DNA from: a virus
Reading direction: 5' to 3' (one strand)
UHGV virus genome: UHGV-0193111
Length of the DNA stretch: 8,441 nucleotides
The translations under genes and the position numbers were made by a program. The notes below the pieces were generated by a model that saw only the letters and a program-made list of their open reading frames with translations, was not told where the DNA came from and searched no databases. Within the stretch, counting starts at the first letter, position 1. Every line of letters starts with the position of its first letter. This document shows positions 283 through 8,441 of the stretch, piece after piece.

Positions 283-603
283 TCAGGCTTTTTCTAGCGT
301 ACACAGCAATGGATGCTCATTCTCCCTCGCGTACTTGTTCACCATCGCCACTTTGGTTTCTGCAACCTCGGCGGTAAAGACTCCGCAAATGGCCTTCCCC
401 TGGTAGTGAACAGCGAGCATCAATTGCGTTGCACGTTCTACATCATAAGAAAAGAATTTTTGTAACACGTCAATAACAAACTCCATCGGAGTGTAATCAT
501 CATTGACTAATATCACTTTATACATAGATGGCGGTTTTAGCGCGTCGCGAACTTTTTCTTCCGCCAGTTGATCAAAGTCCAGCCAGTCGTTCGTTTTACC
601 CAT
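283..603 (-). CDS. clpS: ATP-dependent Clp protease adaptor protein ClpS
   Basis: 106-aa ORF ([51 protein letters not shown]...) matches my recollection of E. coli ClpS over its full length. Correct size and position upstream of clpA. Confidence 0.95.
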
Positions 604-777
604 TGTCAGTTATCATCTTCGGTTACGGTTATCGGCAGAACGCCCTGCCGCTGACAAGAGCTTATTTGCCTGACCAATCTACTCCACATGATAGATAACT
701 ATCATTTATAACATTTCATTGATTAGTCTTTATTTTTCACTGTGTTACAAATAACAACTCTGTCAAAAACAGCGAAA

Positions 778-1430: not shown

Positions 1431-1712
1431 TTACCGCCGTAAGTGCTCCGGCTTCCTCCACTGGTAAGTATTTTTCGCGCTCTCCCTCCGTTGTTGAGAA
1501 CGGCGACGGTATGCCAGCAACTCAAGAACTCTGGTTCGTATGTTGCGCATATCCACGCCATTAAGTTCTATACCATCACGGCGCATCACCTCCGCAACAA
1601 CACGCGCATAATTTTCAGCGGTCACGCTGTCCGGCTGCATGGCCTGTTCGTCAACCTGCTGGCTGATTCCGGCAACGCGGCGGATTAATCCCAGTATTTC
1701 GGCTTCTGTCAT
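1431..1712 (-). CDS. Hypothetical protein, 93 aa, Arg-rich C-terminus (the ORF-track version extends to 1820 but would run across cosN)
   Basis: ORF-track ORF 1431..1820; I prefer the internal ATG at 1712 (MTEAEILGLIRRVAG...) because the longer form overlaps the cos site at 1768-1798. No family recognised. Confidence 0.35.
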   Translation of the reverse strand: MTEAEILGLIRRVAGISQQVDEQAMQPDSVTAENYARVVAEVMRRDGIELNGVDMRNIRTRVLELLAYRRRSQQRRESAKNTYQWRKPEHLRR

Positions 1713-1767
1713 TGTGCCCCCATCGTTCTGAAAGTCTGGTGTCGTCGGGTCCTTCCTGGAATTATGG

Positions 1768-1920
1768 CCCGTTACGGGGCGGCGACCTCGCGGTTTTTCG
1801 CTATTTATGAGCTTTTTCATGGGGGGGTGGTGGTTTTGTTGCTTGCTCTATCTCCATGAATAAAAAGGGAAAGATAACACCAACACACCAACCTGAAACC
1901 TTGACCAAGTTGGGATATTG
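1768..1920 (+). other. cos site 1: lambda-type cosN (cohesive-end sequence GGGCGGCGACCT at 1777-1788) plus a diverged cosB-like leader with tandem ACACCAAC repeat (1877-1892), directly upstream of terS
   Basis: 1768-1812 cccgttacggggcggcgacctcgcggtttttcgctatttatga is near-identical to the phage lambda left end and cosN junction as I recall it (GGGCGGCGACCTCGCGGGTTTTCGCTATTTATGA). Same position and orientation relative to the Nu1-like gene as in lambda. Confidence 0.8.
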
Positions 1921-2463
1921 ATGAAATCGCACCTGATGAACAAAAAAACCATGGCGCAAAGCTGCCGGGTAAGTGCTACAGCATTCGACAAGTGGGGAGT
2001 GACTCCCGTTGAACGTAAAGGCCGTGAGGCGTTTTATGATGTTGCCAGCGTGATAGACAATAGGGTTAACAATGCAATTAGCCAGCTTACAAACGACAAA
2101 GGCGAGATTGATGATGATGAACTCTTACGAGTCAGGATCAGATTACTGACAGCACAGGCGGAGGCGCAGGAACTTAAAAACGAGCGCGATCGCGGTGACG
2201 TGATTGATACAGAGTTTTGCATGTACGCGCTTTCAAAACTGGCGAGTCAGATTTCATCAATCATGGACAGCCTCCCGCTTACTATGCAAAGGAGCTTCCC
2301 ACACATTACCCCCGCTATGCTGGATGGGCTTAAAAGGGAAGTGGTTAAAGCCTGTAATGCCAGTGCCAGAGTTGCCGACAACCTCCCACAGATACTGGCT
2401 GATTACCTGAACGAAACAACCGGAAACGTACCGGAAAAGTTGCTACAGAAGAAAGGCGAGTAA
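1921..2463 (+). CDS. terS: Terminase small subunit, lambda Nu1-like
   Basis: Product aligns along most of its length with lambda Nu1 as I recall it (YDVASVI vs YDSAAVI; RLLTAQAEAQELKNERD vs RLTRAQADAQELKNARD; FCMYALSKLASQISSIMDSLPLTMQRSFP vs FCTFVLSRIAGEIASILDGLPLSVQRRFP; LKREVVKACN vs LKRDIIKAMN). ORF track starts at TTG 1918. First ATG is 1921; ATG 1936 (MNKK...) matches the Nu1 N-terminus MEVNKK best. Weak RBS for either. Confidence 0.85.
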   Translation: MKSHLMNKKTMAQSCRVSATAFDKWGVTPVERKGREAFYDVASVIDNRVNNAISQLTNDKGEIDDDELLRVRIRLLTAQAEAQELKNERDRGDVIDTEFCMYALSKLASQISSIMDSLPLTMQRSFPHITPAMLDGLKREVVKACNASARVADNLPQILADYLNETTGNVPEKLLQKKGE

Positions 2464-2487
2464 CAGACGCGCAATTATTGAACAAAA

Positions 2488-2663
2488 CTGAGAAACGACA
2501 TGAAAGCGTCATAAATCGCCATTTTAGATGATTACCGTGTCGTTTCTTTTTATTGTATATCTATTTAAAAACAAATAGTTATGTTCGAGAAGTACCGACA
2601 TGCTTTTTCCAGAAAAATTTTCATAAACAGATAAAAACCGCGAGGTCGCCGCCCCGTAACGGG
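2488..2663 (-). other. cos site 2 (inverted): lambda-type cosN (reverse complement of GGGCGGCGACCT at 2643-2654) with lambda-like cosB, including an inverted pair of R-site-like elements TGTCGTTTC (2538-2546) and GAAACGACA (2492-2500)
   Basis: 2633-2663 is the exact reverse complement of 1768-1798 (31 bp). The reverse complement of 2488-2640 parallels the lambda cosB region as I recall it (TTTATGAAAATTTTTCTGG; CATAACTATTTGTTTTTAAATAG; AAAAGAAACGACACGG; CATGTCGTTTCTC vs lambda TTTATGAAAATTTTCCGG; CATAACTTAATGTTTTTATTTAAAATA; AAAGGAAACGACAGG; CTCTGTCGTTTCC). Confidence 0.75.
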
Positions 2664-2686
2664 TCCATATGCCGGAAAGGACCCGT

Positions 2687-2710
2687 AAAAAAAAGCCGGA
2701 TTTCTCCGGC
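2687..2710 (-). terminator. Rho-independent terminator of the capsid operon (stem GCCGGA/TCCGGC, loop TTTC, followed on the minus-strand transcript by U8)
   Basis: Hairpin at 2695-2710 with A8 at 2687-2694 on the plus strand, immediately downstream of the 137-aa ORF stop (2717-2719). Confidence 0.6.
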
Positions 2711-2716
2711 CTTGTC

Positions 2717-3130
2717 TCAGATGGTTTTCAGTATGCGATCGATGTCGCCGTCATCGCCCTGGTTTCTGCCATCGTATGCCATGCCAGCTGATACGGCTTG
2801 CGGGCTGTGCATGTCCATAAAGTTTTCAAAGGCTGCGGTAAGCTCTGGTGCAACCTTTGGGCGCTCCTGCTCTATGGTCATGTTCAGGATTTCACGAGCA
2901 TTATCGACGCTAATACATGGCACGTTTGCCATTGCACGTAACAGCGGCTGATAGTCTTTATGCTCATGAAGCGCCATAATCGCATCAGCGCGCGGCTTGT
3001 CCTGCTCTTCCAGTTTGTTGAGTTGATATACGGCCTCGTAGGTTGATAAACCTCTGTCAGCCATTGCCCGCGCTTCTTCTTTAAATTTACTCGCCAGCGG
3101 TAGCGCCATGATGCTTTCATTCGTTGCCAT
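2717..3130 (-). CDS. Hypothetical protein, 137 aa, last gene of the capsid operon
   Basis: ORF with ATG at 3130 preceded by AGGGGGAA RBS, 12 bp after the decoration-protein stop; followed by a terminator. No family recognised; not obviously lambda FI or FII. Confidence 0.65.
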   Translation of the reverse strand: MATNESIMALPLASKFKEEARAMADRGLSTYEAVYQLNKLEEQDKPRADAIMALHEHKDYQPLLRAMANVPCISVDNAREILNMTIEQERPKVAPELTAAFENFMDMHSPQAVSAGMAYDGRNQGDDGDIDRILKTI

Positions 3131-3142
3131 CGTTCCCCCTGC

Positions 3143-3478
3143 TTATCGGGCCAGCGGCTGAACGGATACGCCGGAACCCGCAAAGGCGGCGCATTTTTTC
3201 GCATCGGTGTCGACGCTCTCAGGCCAGTTAACGGCGGCAATATTGAATATCCCCGTCTTGTAACACTGTGCTGATTTCTGCTTTGACGTGTCCACAGGAT
3301 ACGAAGTCAGATAAACAGCCTTGCCAGATTCCTGACCATCCCACGGCTTAAACTCGCCATTGTCCGCCAGCATCAGCGGGGTAAATTCCTGAATAACGCC
3401 AGCATCAGCGGCAAAATGTACCAGCGTCGTTGATACCTGCTGACTGCCTGCAAATAACTCAATGTATGGAGTGTTCAT
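3143..3478 (-). CDS. Head decoration protein, lambda gpD-like
   Basis: Product shares blocks with lambda gpD as I recall it (TPLML, WDG, YK-G-F, WPE, KK-AFAG, S-S-V) and has similar length (111 aa from ATG 3478; ORF track uses GTG 3487, 114 aa). Stop of the capsid gene lies 2 nt upstream of the GTG. Confidence 0.8.
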   Translation of the reverse strand: MNTPYIELFAGSQQVSTTLVHFAADAGVIQEFTPLMLADNGEFKPWDGQESGKAVYLTSYPVDTSKQKSAQCYKTGIFNIAAVNWPESVDTDAKKCAAFAGSGVSVQPLAR

Positions 3479-3489
3479 AGAATCCACCG

Positions 3490-4545
3490 TTAACCAATTT
3501 TGACGGTAACAAATTTGCGAATATCTGCCGGAACAGGCTGCGGTGCGCTGTGTGTCTGCACGTACTCAATCGCCGGATCGCCGTCTTCAATCCAGTTTTT
3601 CGGGTAAAACATGTTTTGCGTTGCGCCCGTTCTTACCGCTTCCTGTTCCATAATCGCACCATAGGCCACCAGCCCTTTATTGTTGGTGTTGCCCAGGACC
3701 AGCAAATCAGGCTCAAGGAAATATTTTTCTGTGCCGTCGCTGTCAGTGTATTTGCCGGAATAGACGATAAGGGCCAGATCACCAAGATAGCCTTTAAAGC
3801 TCACCACTTCTCCCAGGTTTTTACATGCCAGCTCTGCGGCGGATTCTGAACCACGGGAGAGATCGTACAGTTCACGGAATTTTTTAAAGCTGCGTAACAT
3901 GCGCCATACATCAACGCCCATAATCATGACGTTTGCGGGGCAACCTGCCTGATCTGCGTATAGCTCAATGTCATAGATTGGGTCGTGTATGTCTTTGTCC
4001 TGCTCTGACCATTTTTTACCGTCGGCCTGCTCTATGATGTTTTTTTCCGGTATCTTCCAGTCGATTTCATAGCGTTCTATGCCTTCGCCCTCAATGATGT
4101 TTTTTCCGGTCGTTATCGCATTCACCGCCATCCATTCCACGCGCGCTTTAATGGCGTTTATCTGGCGGCGCATGTTGCCAGTAATCAGGCGCATACGGCG
4201 GTAGGTAGGGTCGTTAAGCTGTGCCGGATCTTCTCCAGCCATGCGCATTATTGTTTTTAATGGATCGATTTCGTGTTTTGGCTTCATGTAGCCAGGGCGA
4301 ATAATGCTGGTTTCGTACCCTTTATCGCGCTGAACCTGGCTACCAACCATAGGCGAACAAAACGCCGACATAGTGACTTCTTCAATATCCAGGTTATCTA
4401 ACATGATGTCCTGTGTGTTGAATGTCGCCACGTTCGGGAAAAACAGCGCGGTAAACAGCGGACTGAATTTAAATTCCGCAATATCCTCGCGATTCAGGTA
4501 CGCGAAAAGCTGGTTAGTGTTAAGTGCCATTGCTTTGACTGCCAT
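3490..4545 (-). CDS. Major capsid protein, lambda gpE family
   Basis: 351-aa product shares many conserved blocks with lambda gpE as I recall it (FKF-PLF; PGY-KPKHE; DP-YRR-R; WS-RDK--DP-YDIE-YA; RSFK; GYLGD-A-VYSG-Y; LGNT--GL--YG-I; YPKNW--GDPA). ATG at 4545-4543 with GGGGGTGA RBS; start overlaps the stop of the upstream ORF (TAATG). Confidence 0.9.
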   Translation of the reverse strand: MAVKAMALNTNQLFAYLNREDIAEFKFSPLFTALFFPNVATFNTQDIMLDNLDIEEVTMSAFCSPMVGSQVQRDKGYETSIIRPGYMKPKHEIDPLKTIMRMAGEDPAQLNDPTYRRMRLITGNMRRQINAIKARVEWMAVNAITTGKNIIEGEGIERYEIDWKIPEKNIIEQADGKKWSEQDKDIHDPIYDIELYADQAGCPANVMIMGVDVWRMLRSFKKFRELYDLSRGSESAAELACKNLGEVVSFKGYLGDLALIVYSGKYTDSDGTEKYFLEPDLLVLGNTNNKGLVAYGAIMEQEAVRTGATQNMFYPKNWIEDGDPAIEYVQTHSAPQPVPADIRKFVTVKIG

Positions 4546-4751
4546 TATTCACCCCCATAATTTTTATGCATCCCAAGCGCCGCAAGTAAATAAGAGCGTA
4601 CAAGTGAACCTATCGACGGCTCCGGCGTCATCAGCGGATCCAGTCCAGCCGCCACGCCAGCCTCATAGTTTTTTTTGTGGCGCTGCTTGAGCACCTCCAC
4701 GATTTCGGGGCTTATGTACACCGAAACACCGCCTTTTTTCTCTTCTGCCAT
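4545..4751 (-). CDS. Hypothetical small protein, 68 aa, translationally coupled to the major capsid gene
   Basis: ATG at 4751 with AGAGGA RBS; stop overlaps the capsid gene start. First gene of the operon downstream of a palindromic promoter region. No family recognised (does not resemble lambda gpW despite equal length). Confidence 0.6.
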   Translation of the reverse strand: MAEEKKGGVSVYISPEIVEVLKQRHKKNYEAGVAAGLDPLMTPEPSIGSLVRSYLLAALGMHKNYGGE

Positions 4752-4779
4752 AGTCAGAAATTCCTCTTTGACTTAAAAA

Positions 4780-4818
4780 ATCACAACTGGATGTTCATCC
4801 AGTTATGATTATAATCAT
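4780..4818 (-). promoter_or_regulatory. Candidate promoter/operator of the capsid operon: inverted repeat AACTGGATG-n2-CATCCAGTT (4780-4799) and 14-bp perfect palindrome ATGATTATAATCAT (4805-4818) containing a consensus TATAAT
   Basis: Read directly from the sequence, 30-70 bp upstream of the 68-aa ORF start. No convincing -35 found, so promoter assignment is tentative. Confidence 0.4.
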
Positions 4819-4912
4819 GATTGCATTTTGCGCAATAAAATTGAGTTGTGTTGCAAATTATGAAATGATTTACAGCAACAGTAGTCACCATGCTGTTAAC
4901 CTCGTAAGCAAA

Positions 4913-4952
4913 AGCCCGATAAGCTTCCTCCTGTACTTATCGGGCTTTTTTT
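4913..4952 (+). terminator. Strong hairpin terminator (11-bp perfect stem AGCCCGATAAG/CTTATCGGGCT, then T7 on the plus strand); may also act on minus-strand transcripts (U4 on that side)
   Basis: Read directly from the sequence. No annotated plus-strand gene ends here, so it may insulate the two operons or terminate a small plus-strand RNA. Confidence 0.5.
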
Positions 4953-4958
4953 GGGTAC

Positions 4959-4980
4959 AAAAAGCCGGATTTTCTCCGGC
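4959..4980 (-). terminator. Rho-independent terminator after ssb (stem GCCGGA/TCCGGC, loop TTTTC, U5 on minus-strand transcript)
   Basis: Hairpin 4964-4980 with A5 at 4959-4963 on the plus strand, 9 bp downstream of the ssb stop; near-identical to the terminator at 2687-2710. Confidence 0.55.
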
Positions 4981-4988
4981 CTGTGCGT

Positions 4989-5399
4989 TCAGAACGGAAT
5001 ATCATCACCGTAGGGGTCATCGTCTCCCGCTGGTGGCTGATTACCCTGTGCGCCTGTGGTTTTGCGTCTGTTCCCGCCAGGACGTGCCGCACGGGCACTG
5101 ATTACGCTGTCTGCAATAACCTGATAACCCTGCCGCGTTTCCCCGTTCTGTCCGGTCCACTGGCTTATCTGCATCACGCCAGATATGCTGGCAACGTCGC
5201 CTTTTTGATGTTTAGCCAGGAAGTCGGCCTGCTTACCAAATGCCATCACCGATAGCCATAACGTAGCCGTTCCGTCATCTGCCTGGCTGCACGGAAGGGG
5301 GACCGCCATACGCGCCAGCGTCATCGGTGTGCCCTTGCTGGTCTGTTTTACCTGCGGGTCGTCCACCAGCCGCCCGTAAGCTGCTATCTGTGCTGTCAT
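4989..5399 (-). CDS. ssb: Single-stranded DNA-binding protein
   Basis: 136-aa product with an SSB-like OB-fold core (FGK...KGD...ISG...W...GE-R) and a Gly/Pro-rich linker ending in the acidic tail DDDPYGDDIPF, the hallmark SSB C-terminal motif. Start ATG overlaps the upstream ORF stop (ATGA). Confidence 0.85.
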   Translation of the reverse strand: MTAQIAAYGRLVDDPQVKQTSKGTPMTLARMAVPLPCSQADDGTATLWLSVMAFGKQADFLAKHQKGDVASISGVMQISQWTGQNGETRQGYQVIADSVISARAARPGGNRRKTTGAQGNQPPAGDDDPYGDDIPF

Positions 5400-5647
5400 G
5401 CTGTCTGCTCTCCGGTTTTAACGTTGATGGTTGTTACCTGTTCCGCTTCGGCAATCTCCCGCTCTGTCAGCGTGGCAAAATTTGCCGCCGCCGTGGTCAT
5501 GAATGCGCTTATCAGGTCGGGATGTTCCTTCGCGTATCCTTCCCGCGTGTGGCGGTCTATCGTTCTGATTGCCACCTTTAAGGTGTGCTCAGTCATGTCT
5601 AACGCTTTATATTTTGGCTCTGTTCTGTCTCTGCGTGTTCTGGTCAT
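5396..5647 (-). CDS. Hypothetical protein, 83 aa, translationally coupled to ssb
   Basis: ATG at 5647 with GAGGTGG RBS (ORF track starts 4 codons earlier at TTG 5659); stop overlaps the ssb start. No family recognised. Confidence 0.55.
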   Translation of the reverse strand: MTRTRRDRTEPKYKALDMTEHTLKVAIRTIDRHTREGYAKEHPDLISAFMTTAAANFATLTEREIAEAEQVTTINVKTGEQTA

Positions 5648-5660
5648 TTGCCACCTCAAT

Positions 5661-5999
5661 TTATATATATATATAGAAACATGTGCGGGTTATGCGGGTT
5701 ATTGGGTTATCTTAGCGTGCTAACCATTTTTTATCCTTTTATATCAGTATTTTGCAAAACACCCTGTTTATTATTTGCTCACCACGTAACCCGCAAAACG
5801 CTCAAAATAACCCGCAAACGGGGTTTTTTCTGCGGGTTACGCATGACTGTCCGGTGTTACTTCAGTTATTCGCCTGCGGGTTATAATCGTGCTTTTGCGG
5901 GTTATAAATGCCCTTTTGCGGGTTACGTGCGGGTTATTGGTTTCCTTTATATTCATGCACTTAATACACTTATACACAGGATAACCCGCATAACCCGCA
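5661..5999. repeat. Putative replication origin: iteron array of 11 perfect TGCGGGTTA 9-mers (plus strand at 5684, 5693, 5831, 5875, 5896, 5917, 5928; inverted at 5787, 5808, 5982, 5991) with AT-rich tracts including (TA)n at 5661-5676
   Basis: Repeats read directly from the sequence; several pairs spaced 21 bp (5787/5808; 5875/5896/5917), tandem pairs at both edges in opposite orientation. Located immediately downstream of the primase/helicase gene, as is typical for Pri-Rep plus ori modules of phage-inducible islands. Confidence 0.75.
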
Positions 6000-6021
6000 A
6001 TTTTTTTCCTCACACAGGGGA

Positions 6022-8145
6022 TTAATCTTCATCATCAGGCTGGAACATCAGCACGTAAAAAACATGCTGCTTACCCCCAATCTTGCCCAGCGCCTTTTTT
6101 TTGTATCGGCGATCGCTTCCCTTCTCCAGCATTCCGGCAGCATCCAGGGCACGCGCAAAATGCGCCGGATTAAATCCCTTCGCTATCTCACTATCAAACA
6201 CGTGCGGGAACGTGTAATAGCGCATCTCGTCATCTTCGTTGCGAATGCTCCCTTTTCTGTATCCGGCAAGCTCTTTAATCGGTAAATCACGCTCATCTGT
6301 ATTGGGGTACGGAAGGTAGCGGCTAAACCCAAACGACGACAAAAACGCCTCAGCCTGTTCAACCATCTGTTTAAATTCCCTGTTACCCGTGCCGAACTCC
6401 TTCACCCAGGCATTAAAGTTATGCTGTATCGCGTCGCAGCATTCCTGCACGACCCAGCCAGTTACATGACCGGAAAGCACAAGCGCGGCCTCCAGTATGG
6501 CGAAACGTTCACCCACGCGGTGGACCTGCTCGCCGTAACTCTCCGGTATCAGGTTGCGCCACCGTTCGCGGCATTCCCTTACCGTGTCCTTTGCCTCCTG
6601 CTGGTGGCCTGCCAGCCATTTAACCCACTCACGACCCGCCGCCCCGTGATTTGCTGTCCAGGCATCCTTTAACGCGTCAGCATGTTCCTTACCGTTGCTG
6701 TATTCGTGAAATTTCGTGGCTTTTTCCATCGGAACGTTAAGCAGTCGGACAAGCTGCCCCGCCTTAACTTTTATCCCCTCACTTTTGAGGAATGTCTCAA
6801 CGTCCATTTCTCCGGTGCTGATTGCCACCGTTCGCCAGTGTTTGATCTCCCTGTTGCCGCCATCCTTCGCCCCCTGCAATTTCCCTGAACCGTTAAACAG
6901 CGTATAAGCAGACGTTGACACTTCCCGCGCATTTCCGGCCTGGCCTATCTCATCCAGTGGTAAAAGCCCGTCATTATGGGCCTCGGCCTCATTGGCAATA
7001 CCTAACGCCGTGCCGTACCAGGTCAGCCGCTGCGCGTCCGGCTCTCCCCATAAACTTGATGCGATGTTCTGCGTGGTGGTCTTACCTGCCGATGACTGTT
7101 CGAAAAGATGCACCCCGAAGCCGTCAGCACCCACAAGGCCAATTAAAGGCGCTGCCAGTGACGTTGCCACACCCAGCATCATTGAGGCATTACCGCCAGC
7201 CAGCCGCGCCACGCTGTCGCGCCAGCCATCCGCCGTGCCAGCCACGGAATAACCGTTAATCGCGGCGCTTTTTCCGGTAAACAGGATCGGTTTTTCAGAT
7301 TCACCAATGATCGAACCGTCCGGCATGATGTACGCGCCAAAATGCCAGCCCGTTGTTGTGCTTAACTGCCATTCCTCATGGCTTCCGCTTAACTGCATCC
7401 AGTCCGCCAGGATTGCCCTGTATTTGCCGTTGGTTGTCACGTTCAGCCCGTGATCTTTAAGTAACCGCCAGCCGTCACGGTCGCCGATACCACCACACGG
7501 GATCGCCATTGTGATGACTTCATGGTTTGCGGTTTTTTTCCAGCGCATCACGCGGTAATGCTCTTTACCGATCGTCCCCGTTCCCAGTAGTTCAAGCGGA
7601 GAACATAACCACGTCTCAGGCCGGATAATTTCGCCTGACTGCTTATCCACTTTGGGCGTTACCCAGAAAACACCATCGGCGCGACTTTCAACGCGTGGCT
7701 TTAATTCGTCATCGCTATGACTTCCGGTATCTTTTTTCTTTACCGGAAGCTCAATAACCAGACCATCAGAAAGATTCTGCCGCTCACGGGCCAGATATTC
7801 GCGCCAGTTCTCCACCTTCTGAACGTGCATTCCATCAGGGTAAAAATTTGCATCCTGTACGCCTGCCGCCGCCAGCTTCTGACCAATCGCCTTGATCATT
7901 ACTGGCTCAAGATGTCCGGCCCTGAATATGCGTACTGATTTTCGGCCTTCCGGCACAATTTGCAGCTTATCCAGTTCGGCAAGTTGTTGCTCTCCAAGCC
8001 AGACAGGAGGCACGTTATCGCCAGCCAGTCGCCCGTCCTGTTCCTGCCACTGCTTCGCATGTGCCCACGCATCACTACCCGCAAAAATGATGACTTCCGT
8101 CATTTTGTCACGTGGCTGGTGTTTTAAATTTGGCGCTTTTTTCAT
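6022..8145 (-). CDS. Replication initiator of primase/helicase type (P-loop NTPase; Pri-Rep-like); exact family not resolved
   Basis: 707 aa from ATG 8145 with GGAGAG RBS (ORF track uses GTG 8160, 712 aa). Contains a Walker A-like SSAGKTT and a Walker B-like LLPLDE motif. Large size and position directly upstream of an iteron array. Start overlaps the stop of the upstream ORF (ATGA). Confidence 0.8.
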   Translation of the reverse strand: MKKAPNLKHQPRDKMTEVIIFAGSDAWAHAKQWQEQDGRLAGDNVPPVWLGEQQLAELDKLQIVPEGRKSVRIFRAGHLEPVMIKAIGQKLAAAGVQDANFYPDGMHVQKVENWREYLARERQNLSDGLVIELPVKKKDTGSHSDDELKPRVESRADGVFWVTPKVDKQSGEIIRPETWLCSPLELLGTGTIGKEHYRVMRWKKTANHEVITMAIPCGGIGDRDGWRLLKDHGLNVTTNGKYRAILADWMQLSGSHEEWQLSTTTGWHFGAYIMPDGSIIGESEKPILFTGKSAAINGYSVAGTADGWRDSVARLAGGNASMMLGVATSLAAPLIGLVGADGFGVHLFEQSSAGKTTTQNIASSLWGEPDAQRLTWYGTALGIANEAEAHNDGLLPLDEIGQAGNAREVSTSAYTLFNGSGKLQGAKDGGNREIKHWRTVAISTGEMDVETFLKSEGIKVKAGQLVRLLNVPMEKATKFHEYSNGKEHADALKDAWTANHGAAGREWVKWLAGHQQEAKDTVRECRERWRNLIPESYGEQVHRVGERFAILEAALVLSGHVTGWVVQECCDAIQHNFNAWVKEFGTGNREFKQMVEQAEAFLSSFGFSRYLPYPNTDERDLPIKELAGYRKGSIRNEDDEMRYYTFPHVFDSEIAKGFNPAHFARALDAAGMLEKGSDRRYKKKALGKIGGKQHVFYVLMFQPDDED

Positions 8146-8441
8146 TTCTGCTCTCTCCACGCGGCAATCATGTTTTTTAGTTCCTGTAGTTTTTTATCAA
8201 CATCCATACATGACACATGGTTATTTCTGGAAAGCGGGATTTCCCGCCTGAATCTGCTAATAAAGATCTCCACGTTCAGCGAACTAAGAAATGAATAGCC
8301 ATCACGGATAAAATACACACGGTCAAACATCAGTTCTTTTACCGTTACTCTGTTACCGTTCTTATCCAGATAAATAGCGCCGGGGATAATTTGGGGGTGT
8401 GCATAACCGCTGGCAGTCAAGCCAGATAAATATGTTCTCAT
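8142..8441 (-). CDS. Hypothetical protein, at least 99 aa; may continue beyond the window end
   Basis: Open frame runs to the window edge (an ATG happens to sit at 8441-8439); stop overlaps the primase start. No family recognised; not AlpA-like. Confidence 0.45.
   Translation of the reverse strand: MRTYLSGLTASGYAHPQIIPGAIYLDKNGNRVTVKELMFDRVYFIRDGYSFLSSLNVEIFISRFRREIPLSRNNHVSCMDVDKKLQELKNMIAAWREQK

Follow-up and report, generated by a model that had tools for sequence, protein, structure and literature searches.

A probable TerS-encoding phage-inducible chromosomal island next to clpS, with a conserved trio of head genes and an inverted pair of lambda-type cos sites

The sequence analysed here is an 8,441-nucleotide stretch of the virus genome UHGV-0193111; "the window" denotes this whole stretch. 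It contains clpS and ~7.7 kb of an island whose full length is ~10.8-11.3 kb. We assign the element with confidence to the classical Gram-negative phage-inducible chromosomal islands (PICIs) and, among them, to the TerS-encoding subtype of the EcCICFT073/EcCIIHE3034 family. It occupies an att site of 21 bp that lies between clpS and yljB/cspD. The layout of the island is ordinary. The family is published and very common, and the capsid, decoration and small-terminase genes belong to its standard gene set. A first-pass annotation, made from the sequence alone, had proposed a helper-dependent satellite that has its own packaging-specificity gene and cos and borrows the terL, portal, tail and lysis functions, and this part of the proposal is borne out. 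It had also described the configuration as unusual and the element as supplying its own shell protein. That interpretation fails on novelty and on the shell, whereas the identification as a satellite stands; the gene set is the one that defines the family.

The SatelliteFinder study recognises integrase, regulator (AlpA), primase-replicase, capsid morphogenesis and small terminase as core components of PICIs (PMC10085698), so that capsid and terS account for two out of five. All five are found together in 375 PICIs ("Type A"), and E. coli accounts for 97% of these (PMC10085698). A capsid gene is present in 21 of 29 reference Gram-negative PICIs (PMC10111431), and the islands of strains IHE3034 and 18098 encode TerS (Fillol-Salom et al. 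2018, ISME J, PMC6092414), the former with the same gene order at the same site. Genome comparisons were made against 5426 complete E. coli genomes; 592 of them, including O157:H7 and Nissle 1917, carry the block of 137-aa, decoration and capsid genes at 90% identity or more, and gene order is fixed across hundreds of genomes.

The features at the clpS-proximal border are as follows.

283-603, minus strand: clpS, the chromosomal E. coli gene at the start of the window
689-709, no strand assigned: att repeat TGATAGATAACTATCATTTAT, 21 bp, the clpS-proximal island junction, from comparison with the K-12 empty site
710-1430, no strand assigned: terminal non-coding/accessory region of the island, patchily conserved with relatives

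The yljB-clpS sequence of K-12, which is an empty site, matches the window up to position 709 only. The 21 bp of att (1808-1828 of the K-12 empty site) are present at both ends of the island of strain SCU-172, with two mismatches at the far end. Because the K-12 match stops at 709 and att is duplicated in the SCU-172 island, the island edge is placed at 689/710 of the window; the start at 1431 given in the first-pass annotation is too far inside. A dedicated att site with a direct repeat, as expected of a PICI, is present, and EcCIIHE3034 uses the same site.

The best matches to the window are the islands at this site in strains SCU-172 (98.1%) and N10 (98.6%; both identities over window 4989-8441). 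Past the DUF4222 gene, at which the window ends, these islands continue with a hypothetical gene, an Icd-like gene, YlcI/YnfO, an AlpA-family regulator and a tyrosine integrase, followed by yljB and cspD. The AlpA protein of N10 has 69 aa and matches PF05930 at 1e-16; the window itself ends before alpA. The integrase gene (Pfam Phage_integrase) is likewise present in both same-site islands and lies outside the window. The SCU-172 island measures 11,271 bp between its att repeats. In these closest relatives no terL, portal, protease, tail or lysis gene was found beyond the region equivalent to the window. The terL, portal and tail genes, if present just past its end, had been named in the first-pass annotation as the mark of a complete or decaying prophage.

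Within the window, Pfam and PHROG searches gave no terL, portal, protease, tail or lysis gene, and in this the first-pass annotation was right. Tail, holin, portal, head-tail connector and terL genes are absent from the window and from the full islands of the relatives, and the size falls in the PICI range of about 10-15 kb. Genes typical of capsid-forming PICIs (cf-PICIs), namely portal, prohead protease, head-tail adaptor/connector, terL and HNH, had no Pfam or PHROG match in the window and are not annotated in the complete related islands; membership of the cf-PICIs was therefore rejected. A P4-like satellite, in which a psu-delta-sid operon, epsilon and an alpha primase would be expected, was also rejected, as there was no match to Sid, Psu or Delta and the head genes are homologs of gpE, gpD and Nu3 instead.

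The replication module is also that of a PICI.

6022-8145, minus strand: primase/replicative helicase, DUF927 type (DUF927 1.6e-48; phrog_1139 2e-189)
5684-5999, no strand assigned: replication origin with 11 copies of TGCGGGTTA in both orientations (11 observed, 0.13 expected by chance)
4989-5399, minus strand: SSB (Pfam SSB 3.5e-15; 94% identical to the SSB of EcCICFT073)

PICI origins have been described as lying immediately 3′ of the primase gene (PMC6092414), and this is where the iterons are found here, adjoined by an AT-rich tract at 5656-5682. The ssb gene, the primase/helicase gene and the iteron origin of the first-pass annotation are thus confirmed. The primase shares its N-terminal ~160 aa with that of EcCICFT073 at 79% identity, and the remainder is a different, DUF927/Cch-like helicase. 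This pattern suggests that the primase's C-terminal part was exchanged together with the iterons as a replicon module.

The packaging region consists of a small terminase gene flanked by two cos sites.

1921-2463, plus strand: terS, Nu1-like small terminase of 180 aa (Pfam Phage_Nu1 3e-23; phrog_57 4e-52)
1746-1920, plus strand: cosL, a cosQ-like element, cosN at 1777-1788 and a short island-type cosB, followed by terS (from alignment with lambda cos and EcCICFT073 cos1)
2465-2685, minus strand: cosR, a second, inverted cos with cosN at 2643-2654 and a lambda-like cosB (aligns along the whole of lambda cos)
1789-2642, no strand assigned: cos-to-cos terS cassette, 854 bp between the cosN cores, inverted relative to most relatives, with arms 1746-1822 and 2609-2685

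The Nu1-like assignment of terS made in the first-pass annotation holds, the full-length protein being 36% identical to lambda Nu1. The best phage match is gp1 of N15 (45% overall), the N-terminal winged helix-turn-helix (wHTH) region being very similar. The C-terminal part (LPQILADYL) aligns with the C-terminus of lambda Nu1 (IPGLLSEYI). In lambda the TerS C-terminus binds TerL (PMC6739421, PMC9026076), and Rpp proteins are without that region. The island does not fit a cos PICI of the Rpp type (Fillol-Salom 2019), in which a wHTH protein of 139-154 aa without the TerL-binding C-terminus occupies this position; the gene found there encodes a Nu1 homolog that is full-length at 180 aa, shows 16% identity to RppA in an alignment and has no BLASTP match to it. 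A search of PDB sequences with TerS gave no meaningful match. The dN/dS of terS is 0.16. A Nu1-family TerS with an adjacent cos supplies the small-terminase, packaging-redirecting component of a PICI.

The first-pass annotation had reported a cos. At cosL, upstream of terS, the cosN core GGGCGGCGACCT is indeed present in its exact lambda form, and its flanks are lambda-like; the count has to be corrected, as there are two inverted cos sites and not one. At both, cosQ, the 12-nt cosN core and cosB follow in the fixed order of a lambda-type cos, with an exact core and a cosQ-like flank, and the two sites point inward. They differ in cosB. At cosL this element is short and G/T-rich (GGGGGGGTGGTGGTTTTGTTG) and resembles the post-cosN (R3) region of N15 (GAGGTTGTTGTTT). 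The cosB of cosR contains an R3-like element, an I1-like AT-rich stretch and R2- and R1-like elements; two TGTCGTTTC repeats, inverted, are spaced as R2 and R1 are in lambda, and the R-like repeats lie at 2538-2556 and 2482-2500. In position and flanks cosR matches cos2 of EcCICFT073, where cos1 and cos2 are both functional (PMC6092414). It has no terS of its own and abuts the 3′ end of the island terS. An inverted cos pair was found in six of the seven related islands checked (EcCICFT073, Nissle 1917, IHE3034, SCU-172, PM4-5 and 2014C-4587), while N10 has a single site. In SCU-172 (L001 14098-14609) the inverted sites enclose 512 bp only, with no annotated terS or rpp, and the right half matches the cos2 flank of EcCICFT073 at 95%. 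From these similarities, cosL would be read by the island TerS, which would recruit the helper TerL directly, and cosR would be readable by a lambda-type helper TerS.

Relative to the islands of N10, Nissle 1917 and IHE3034, the terS cassette of the window is inverted, and terS therefore runs antisense to an otherwise one-directional island. Of the 5426 genomes, 5 have the flipped junction and at least 228 the co-oriented one. The window cassette is 100% identical to the flipped cassette of PM4-5, 95.8% to the co-oriented one of Nissle and 87% to the flipped one of 2014C-4587. Since the flipped 2014C-4587 cassette is more distant than the co-oriented Nissle cassette, orientation does not track lineage. 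The PM4-5 island sits in tqsA, and its terS (L008 11282-11824) and cassette are 100% identical to those of the window, with only ~92% identity in the other genes; this suggests an exchange of modules bounded by the cos sites. The crossover must fall within the ~31 bp common to both sites, centred on cosN. Recombination between short inverted repeats is one possible mechanism of the flip; cutting of both cosN sites followed by religation is another. Religation in either orientation would be permitted, because the two fragment ends carry identical 12-nt overhangs when the cosN pair points inward.

The inversion also bears on the gene next to cosL.

1431-1712, minus strand: conserved 93-aa PICI protein, the last island gene (phrog_1561 1e-53, over residues 37-129 of a longer open reading frame)

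The orthologs of this protein are 93 aa long in all seven islands compared (dN/dS 0.30). The longer, 129-aa frame at 1431-1820 (minus strand) is an artefactual extension of the 93-aa gene, because the inversion allows read-through across cosN; the extra 36 codons are probably not translated. The sole match to the PADLOC defence models was a BrxA-like one on this 93-aa protein (0.0065), which was taken as chance.

Three consecutive genes on the minus strand encode homologs of head proteins, the third of them a likely one, and end at a terminator-like hairpin.

3490-4545, minus strand: major capsid protein homolog of the gpE family, ortholog of c1499 (Phage_cap_E 3.5e-50)
3143-3478, minus strand: head decoration protein, gpD homolog, ortholog of c1500 (HDPD 5.5e-18)
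2717-3130, minus strand: 137-aa protein with likely homology to lambda Nu3/gpC in the C-terminal scaffold domain (phrog_1999 1e-64)
2692-2713, minus strand: terminator-like hairpin directly 3′ of the 137-aa gene (consensus scan only)

The gpE-like capsid and gpD-like decoration genes had been recognised in the first-pass annotation, and both identifications stand. The capsid protein, which supplies the capsid-morphogenesis component of a PICI, is 94.6% identical to c1499 of EcCICFT073 and 43% to lambda E (dN/dS 0.14). Its identity to any phage capsid protein among 50,697 phage records does not exceed 47-48%; for this reason it is regarded as an old PICI-specific lineage and not as a recent capture. 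The decoration protein is 97.3% identical to c1500 (dN/dS 0.11).

The first-pass annotation also stated that no scaffold gene is present. This was wrong if, as is likely, the 137-aa protein is a Nu3 homolog. The argument depends on reciprocal PHROG profile matches and on intermediate sequences. The protein also matches phrog_53, a head-protease family, at the C-terminal end of the latter (1e-10); in the reverse search, residues 117-200 of lambda Nu3 (gpC 355-438) match phrog_1999 at 2.7e-26. An exhaustive profile search returned few distant relatives, and three of them (P0041, P0042 and P0044) match the Nu3 families phrog_8940 and phrog_8399, whose annotations are "capsid assembly protein" and "head scaffolding protein". 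A direct BLASTP comparison between the 137-aa protein and lambda Nu3 gave no significant match; hhalign, run on a shallow alignment, gave a weak one (E 0.008, probability 5%), though in the same register. A PDB sequence search gave no meaningful match, NCBIfam nothing useful, and Pfam at E up to 10 only noise with the 68-, 93-, 83- and 137-aa proteins. Some NCBI records call the 137-aa protein a 'phage head-tail connector protein', although no NCBIfam model matched. It is 92% identical to its EcCICFT073 counterpart (dN/dS 0.28). If the Nu3 homology is true, the island carries homologs of lambda E, of lambda D and of the Nu3 C-terminal domain, without a portal or a protease.

The head genes are no relics. 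Across seven islands, the six genes compared are all intact and equal in length, with dN/dS values of 0.11-0.28 for the packaging and head genes, and the head genes are under purifying selection. The pseudogenised capsid or terS gene considered in the first-pass annotation is thus not seen.

The life cycle that we propose, as judged from the family, would begin when a lambdoid helper turns on AlpA. Once cut out by the integrase, the island would be replicated from the TGCGGGTTA iteron origin through the DUF927 primase/helicase and SSB. The island TerS, with its N15-like DNA-binding end and lambda-like C-terminal region, would bind the island-specific cosB beside the lambda-type cosN and hand the helper large terminase to island DNA, which would be packaged as multi-copy concatemers into heads and tails made by the helper. 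The inverted cosR, with its lambda-like cosB, probably lets the helper TerS start packaging too. Later papers from the group that described EcCICFT073 transfer report that such PICIs are packaged as concatemers in full-size helper heads; by our estimate four copies of ~11 kb would give ~43-45 kb, which fits a lambda head.

Several points weigh against this scheme. Binding of the helper TerL by the island TerS is predicted from sequence similarity. The TerS-encoding islands EcCIIHE3034 and EcCI18098 were barely mobilised by resident prophages (<1 to 110 transductants; PMC6092414). The expression of terS is uncertain, because the gene is antisense to the island operon here and a promoter scan found no sigma-70 consensus promoter upstream of it. 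The int/alpA end lies outside the window and is deduced from relatives that are 98% identical over 4989-8441.

The role of the head trio is where the alternatives diverge. In the first-pass annotation the element supplied its own shell, which in its minimal form would mean a capsid-forming satellite that builds a gpE-like shell with decoration and scaffold proteins on a portal borrowed from the helper; the resulting particles would be small and hold one or two copies of the island. The genes for the capsid, the decoration protein and the Nu3-like protein do form a coherent set, which is under purifying selection and intact in each of the seven islands and belongs to a PICI-specific lineage by the limited identity of the capsid to phage capsids, and PmCI172, which has a capsid homolog, does give small capsids (PMC6092414). 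Yet deletion or replacement of c1499 or c1500 in EcCICFT073 caused no drop in transfer by lambda, phi80 or the resident helper; the c1499::cat island was transferred at 1e5-1e6, and all packaged EcCICFT073 DNA was phage-sized (PMC6092414). The island moreover lacks genes for a portal, a protease or a connector, and full-size helper heads are what later reviews report for these PICIs. By analogy with these orthologs, which are ~95% identical and were tested with few helpers, the proposal is contradicted, and we regard it as quite improbable. A better case, though still an unlikely one, can be made for the trio as an interference or defence module that poisons or mis-sizes the heads of some infecting lambdoid phages and is not needed for the transfer of the island itself. 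It would explain strong conservation despite dispensability for transfer; it has a precedent in Ccm of SaPIbov5 (a Staphylococcus aureus pathogenicity island, SaPI), a capsid homolog that redirects helper assembly; and the SatelliteFinder study regards the capsid component as one thought to modify hijacked capsids (PMC10085698). Deletion of c1499 or c1500, however, did not relieve lambda interference by EcCICFT073 and lambda plaques were not restored (PMC6092414), a result in which Rpp interference could mask a smaller effect, and no PADLOC defence model matches the trio proteins.

That the element is a decaying prophage or a degraded cf-PICI, with capsid and terS as leftovers, is hardly credible, even if few phage late genes and no complete head module are present. 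Its att site is defined, it carries a replicon of its own, its gene order is fixed in hundreds of genomes, its reading frames are identical in length between islands at dN/dS 0.1-0.3, its capsid and TerS lineages are far from any phage, and published phylogenies separate PICI capsid and terS genes from those of cf-PICIs. For a PICI of the EcCICFT073/EcCIIHE3034 family, the most likely role of the trio would be a helper-specific effect on head assembly. Two further ideas, taken together, have a low probability in our estimate: that the trio assembles or co-assembles an island-specific shell on the portal of another helper, and that the 854-bp terS cassette is a flippable unit operated through cosN cutting and religation. 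If the former were true, an abundant PICI class would be an intermediate between capsid-remodelling satellites and cf-PICIs; if the latter were true, a flip could switch terS expression or packaging direction.

The remaining genes of the island are small.

4545-4751, minus strand: conserved 68-aa protein, phrog_3255 (PHROG match; intact in all seven islands)
5396-5647, minus strand: conserved 83-aa protein, phrog_1231 (PHROG match)
8142-8441, minus strand: DUF4222 protein with its start codon at the window end (PF13973 1.4e-16)

The stop of the 68-aa gene overlaps the start of the capsid gene (ATGA, 4545-4548), which suggests translational coupling of the two. The 68-aa protein is far more divergent between islands (~67% identity) than the capsid downstream. 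The DUF4222 gene stands upstream of the primase in all relatives. In SCU-172, N10 and CFT073 a gene for a PerC-family regulator, perC, lies between the SSB and 68-aa genes. The window has lost it by a clean deletion, seen in the alignment as 278 bp of the SCU-172 island (L001) that are skipped between window positions 4985 and 4989. In the terminal region 710-1430, the 12-mer ATTAACTACACC occurs twice in tandem at 777-800 and might be an integrase arm site. A perfect 22-bp palindrome is present at 1362-1383 and an imperfect 33-nt hairpin at 1272-1342. The small reading frames of this region and the antisense frames had no Pfam match, and Rfam gave no match in the whole window at E up to 0.1.

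As a discovery the element matters little, since it belongs to a published and abundant family and the supposedly odd gene set is the defining set. Its interest lies elsewhere. A trio of capsid, decoration and scaffold-like genes is kept intact under purifying selection in ~11% of complete E. coli genomes. The Nu3-like third head gene, the inverted cos pair with two types of cosB and the flipped (possibly flippable) 854-bp cassette are neither discussed nor explained in the PICI literature cited here. The TerS subtype is itself of interest: the helper-dependent induction via AlpA and cos-dependent transfer that have been shown for EcCICFT073 (PMC6092414), an RppA island, are for this subtype a prediction.

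Among known systems, lambda shares with the island the type of cosN and cosQ, and the R3-I1-R2-R1 layout of cosR is lambda-like. N15 has the TerS (gp1) most like that of the island in the N-terminal wHTH, and a short G/T-rich cosB as at cosL. Unlike in both phages, no terL follows terS here, and two cos sites are inverted around the gene. In pac SaPIs a satellite TerS (TerS-S) also pairs with the helper TerL, but packaging is headful and not cos-dependent. The cos island SaPIbov5 combines a satellite homolog of the capsid protein (Ccm) with a helper cos, as here. Both kinds of SaPI are Gram-positive elements unrelated in sequence, and the Ccm of SaPIbov5 demonstrably resizes capsids, whereas the E. 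coli ortholog is without a known phenotype. The cf-PICI EcCIEDL933 (Alqurainy et al.) shares the int-alpA-primase front half, capsid and terS genes and lambdoid/HK-type helpers; cf-PICIs, however, encode portal, protease, head-tail connectors, HNH and terL, of which this island has none, and build small capsids of their own.

The closest parallels are the two E. coli islands that give the family its name. EcCICFT073, the prototype Gram-negative cos PICI, has the same order (DUF4222, primase, small frame, SSB, PerC, 68-aa, capsid, decoration, 137-aa, cos, packaging gene, cos, 93-aa, with PerC lacking here), the same inverted pair of lambda-type cos sites, and a head trio and SSB that are 92-97% identical. 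It differs in its att near phoQ, in the presence of perC and in the C-terminal domain of the primase and the iterons. Its packaging gene encodes RppA (144 aa), which re-targets the helper TerS, and the full-length TerS of the present island amounts to the one functional substitution. EcCIIHE3034, a TerS-encoding PICI at the same clpS-adjacent site, has primase, small frame, SSB, 68-aa, capsid, decoration, 137-aa, cos, terS, cos and 93-aa genes in the same order, and the window aligns with it in blocks of 80-97% identity. Its primase is of the 'DNA primase family' type and not of the DUF927 type, and its terS cassette is 95.7% identical to the one described here, in which the orientation is flipped.

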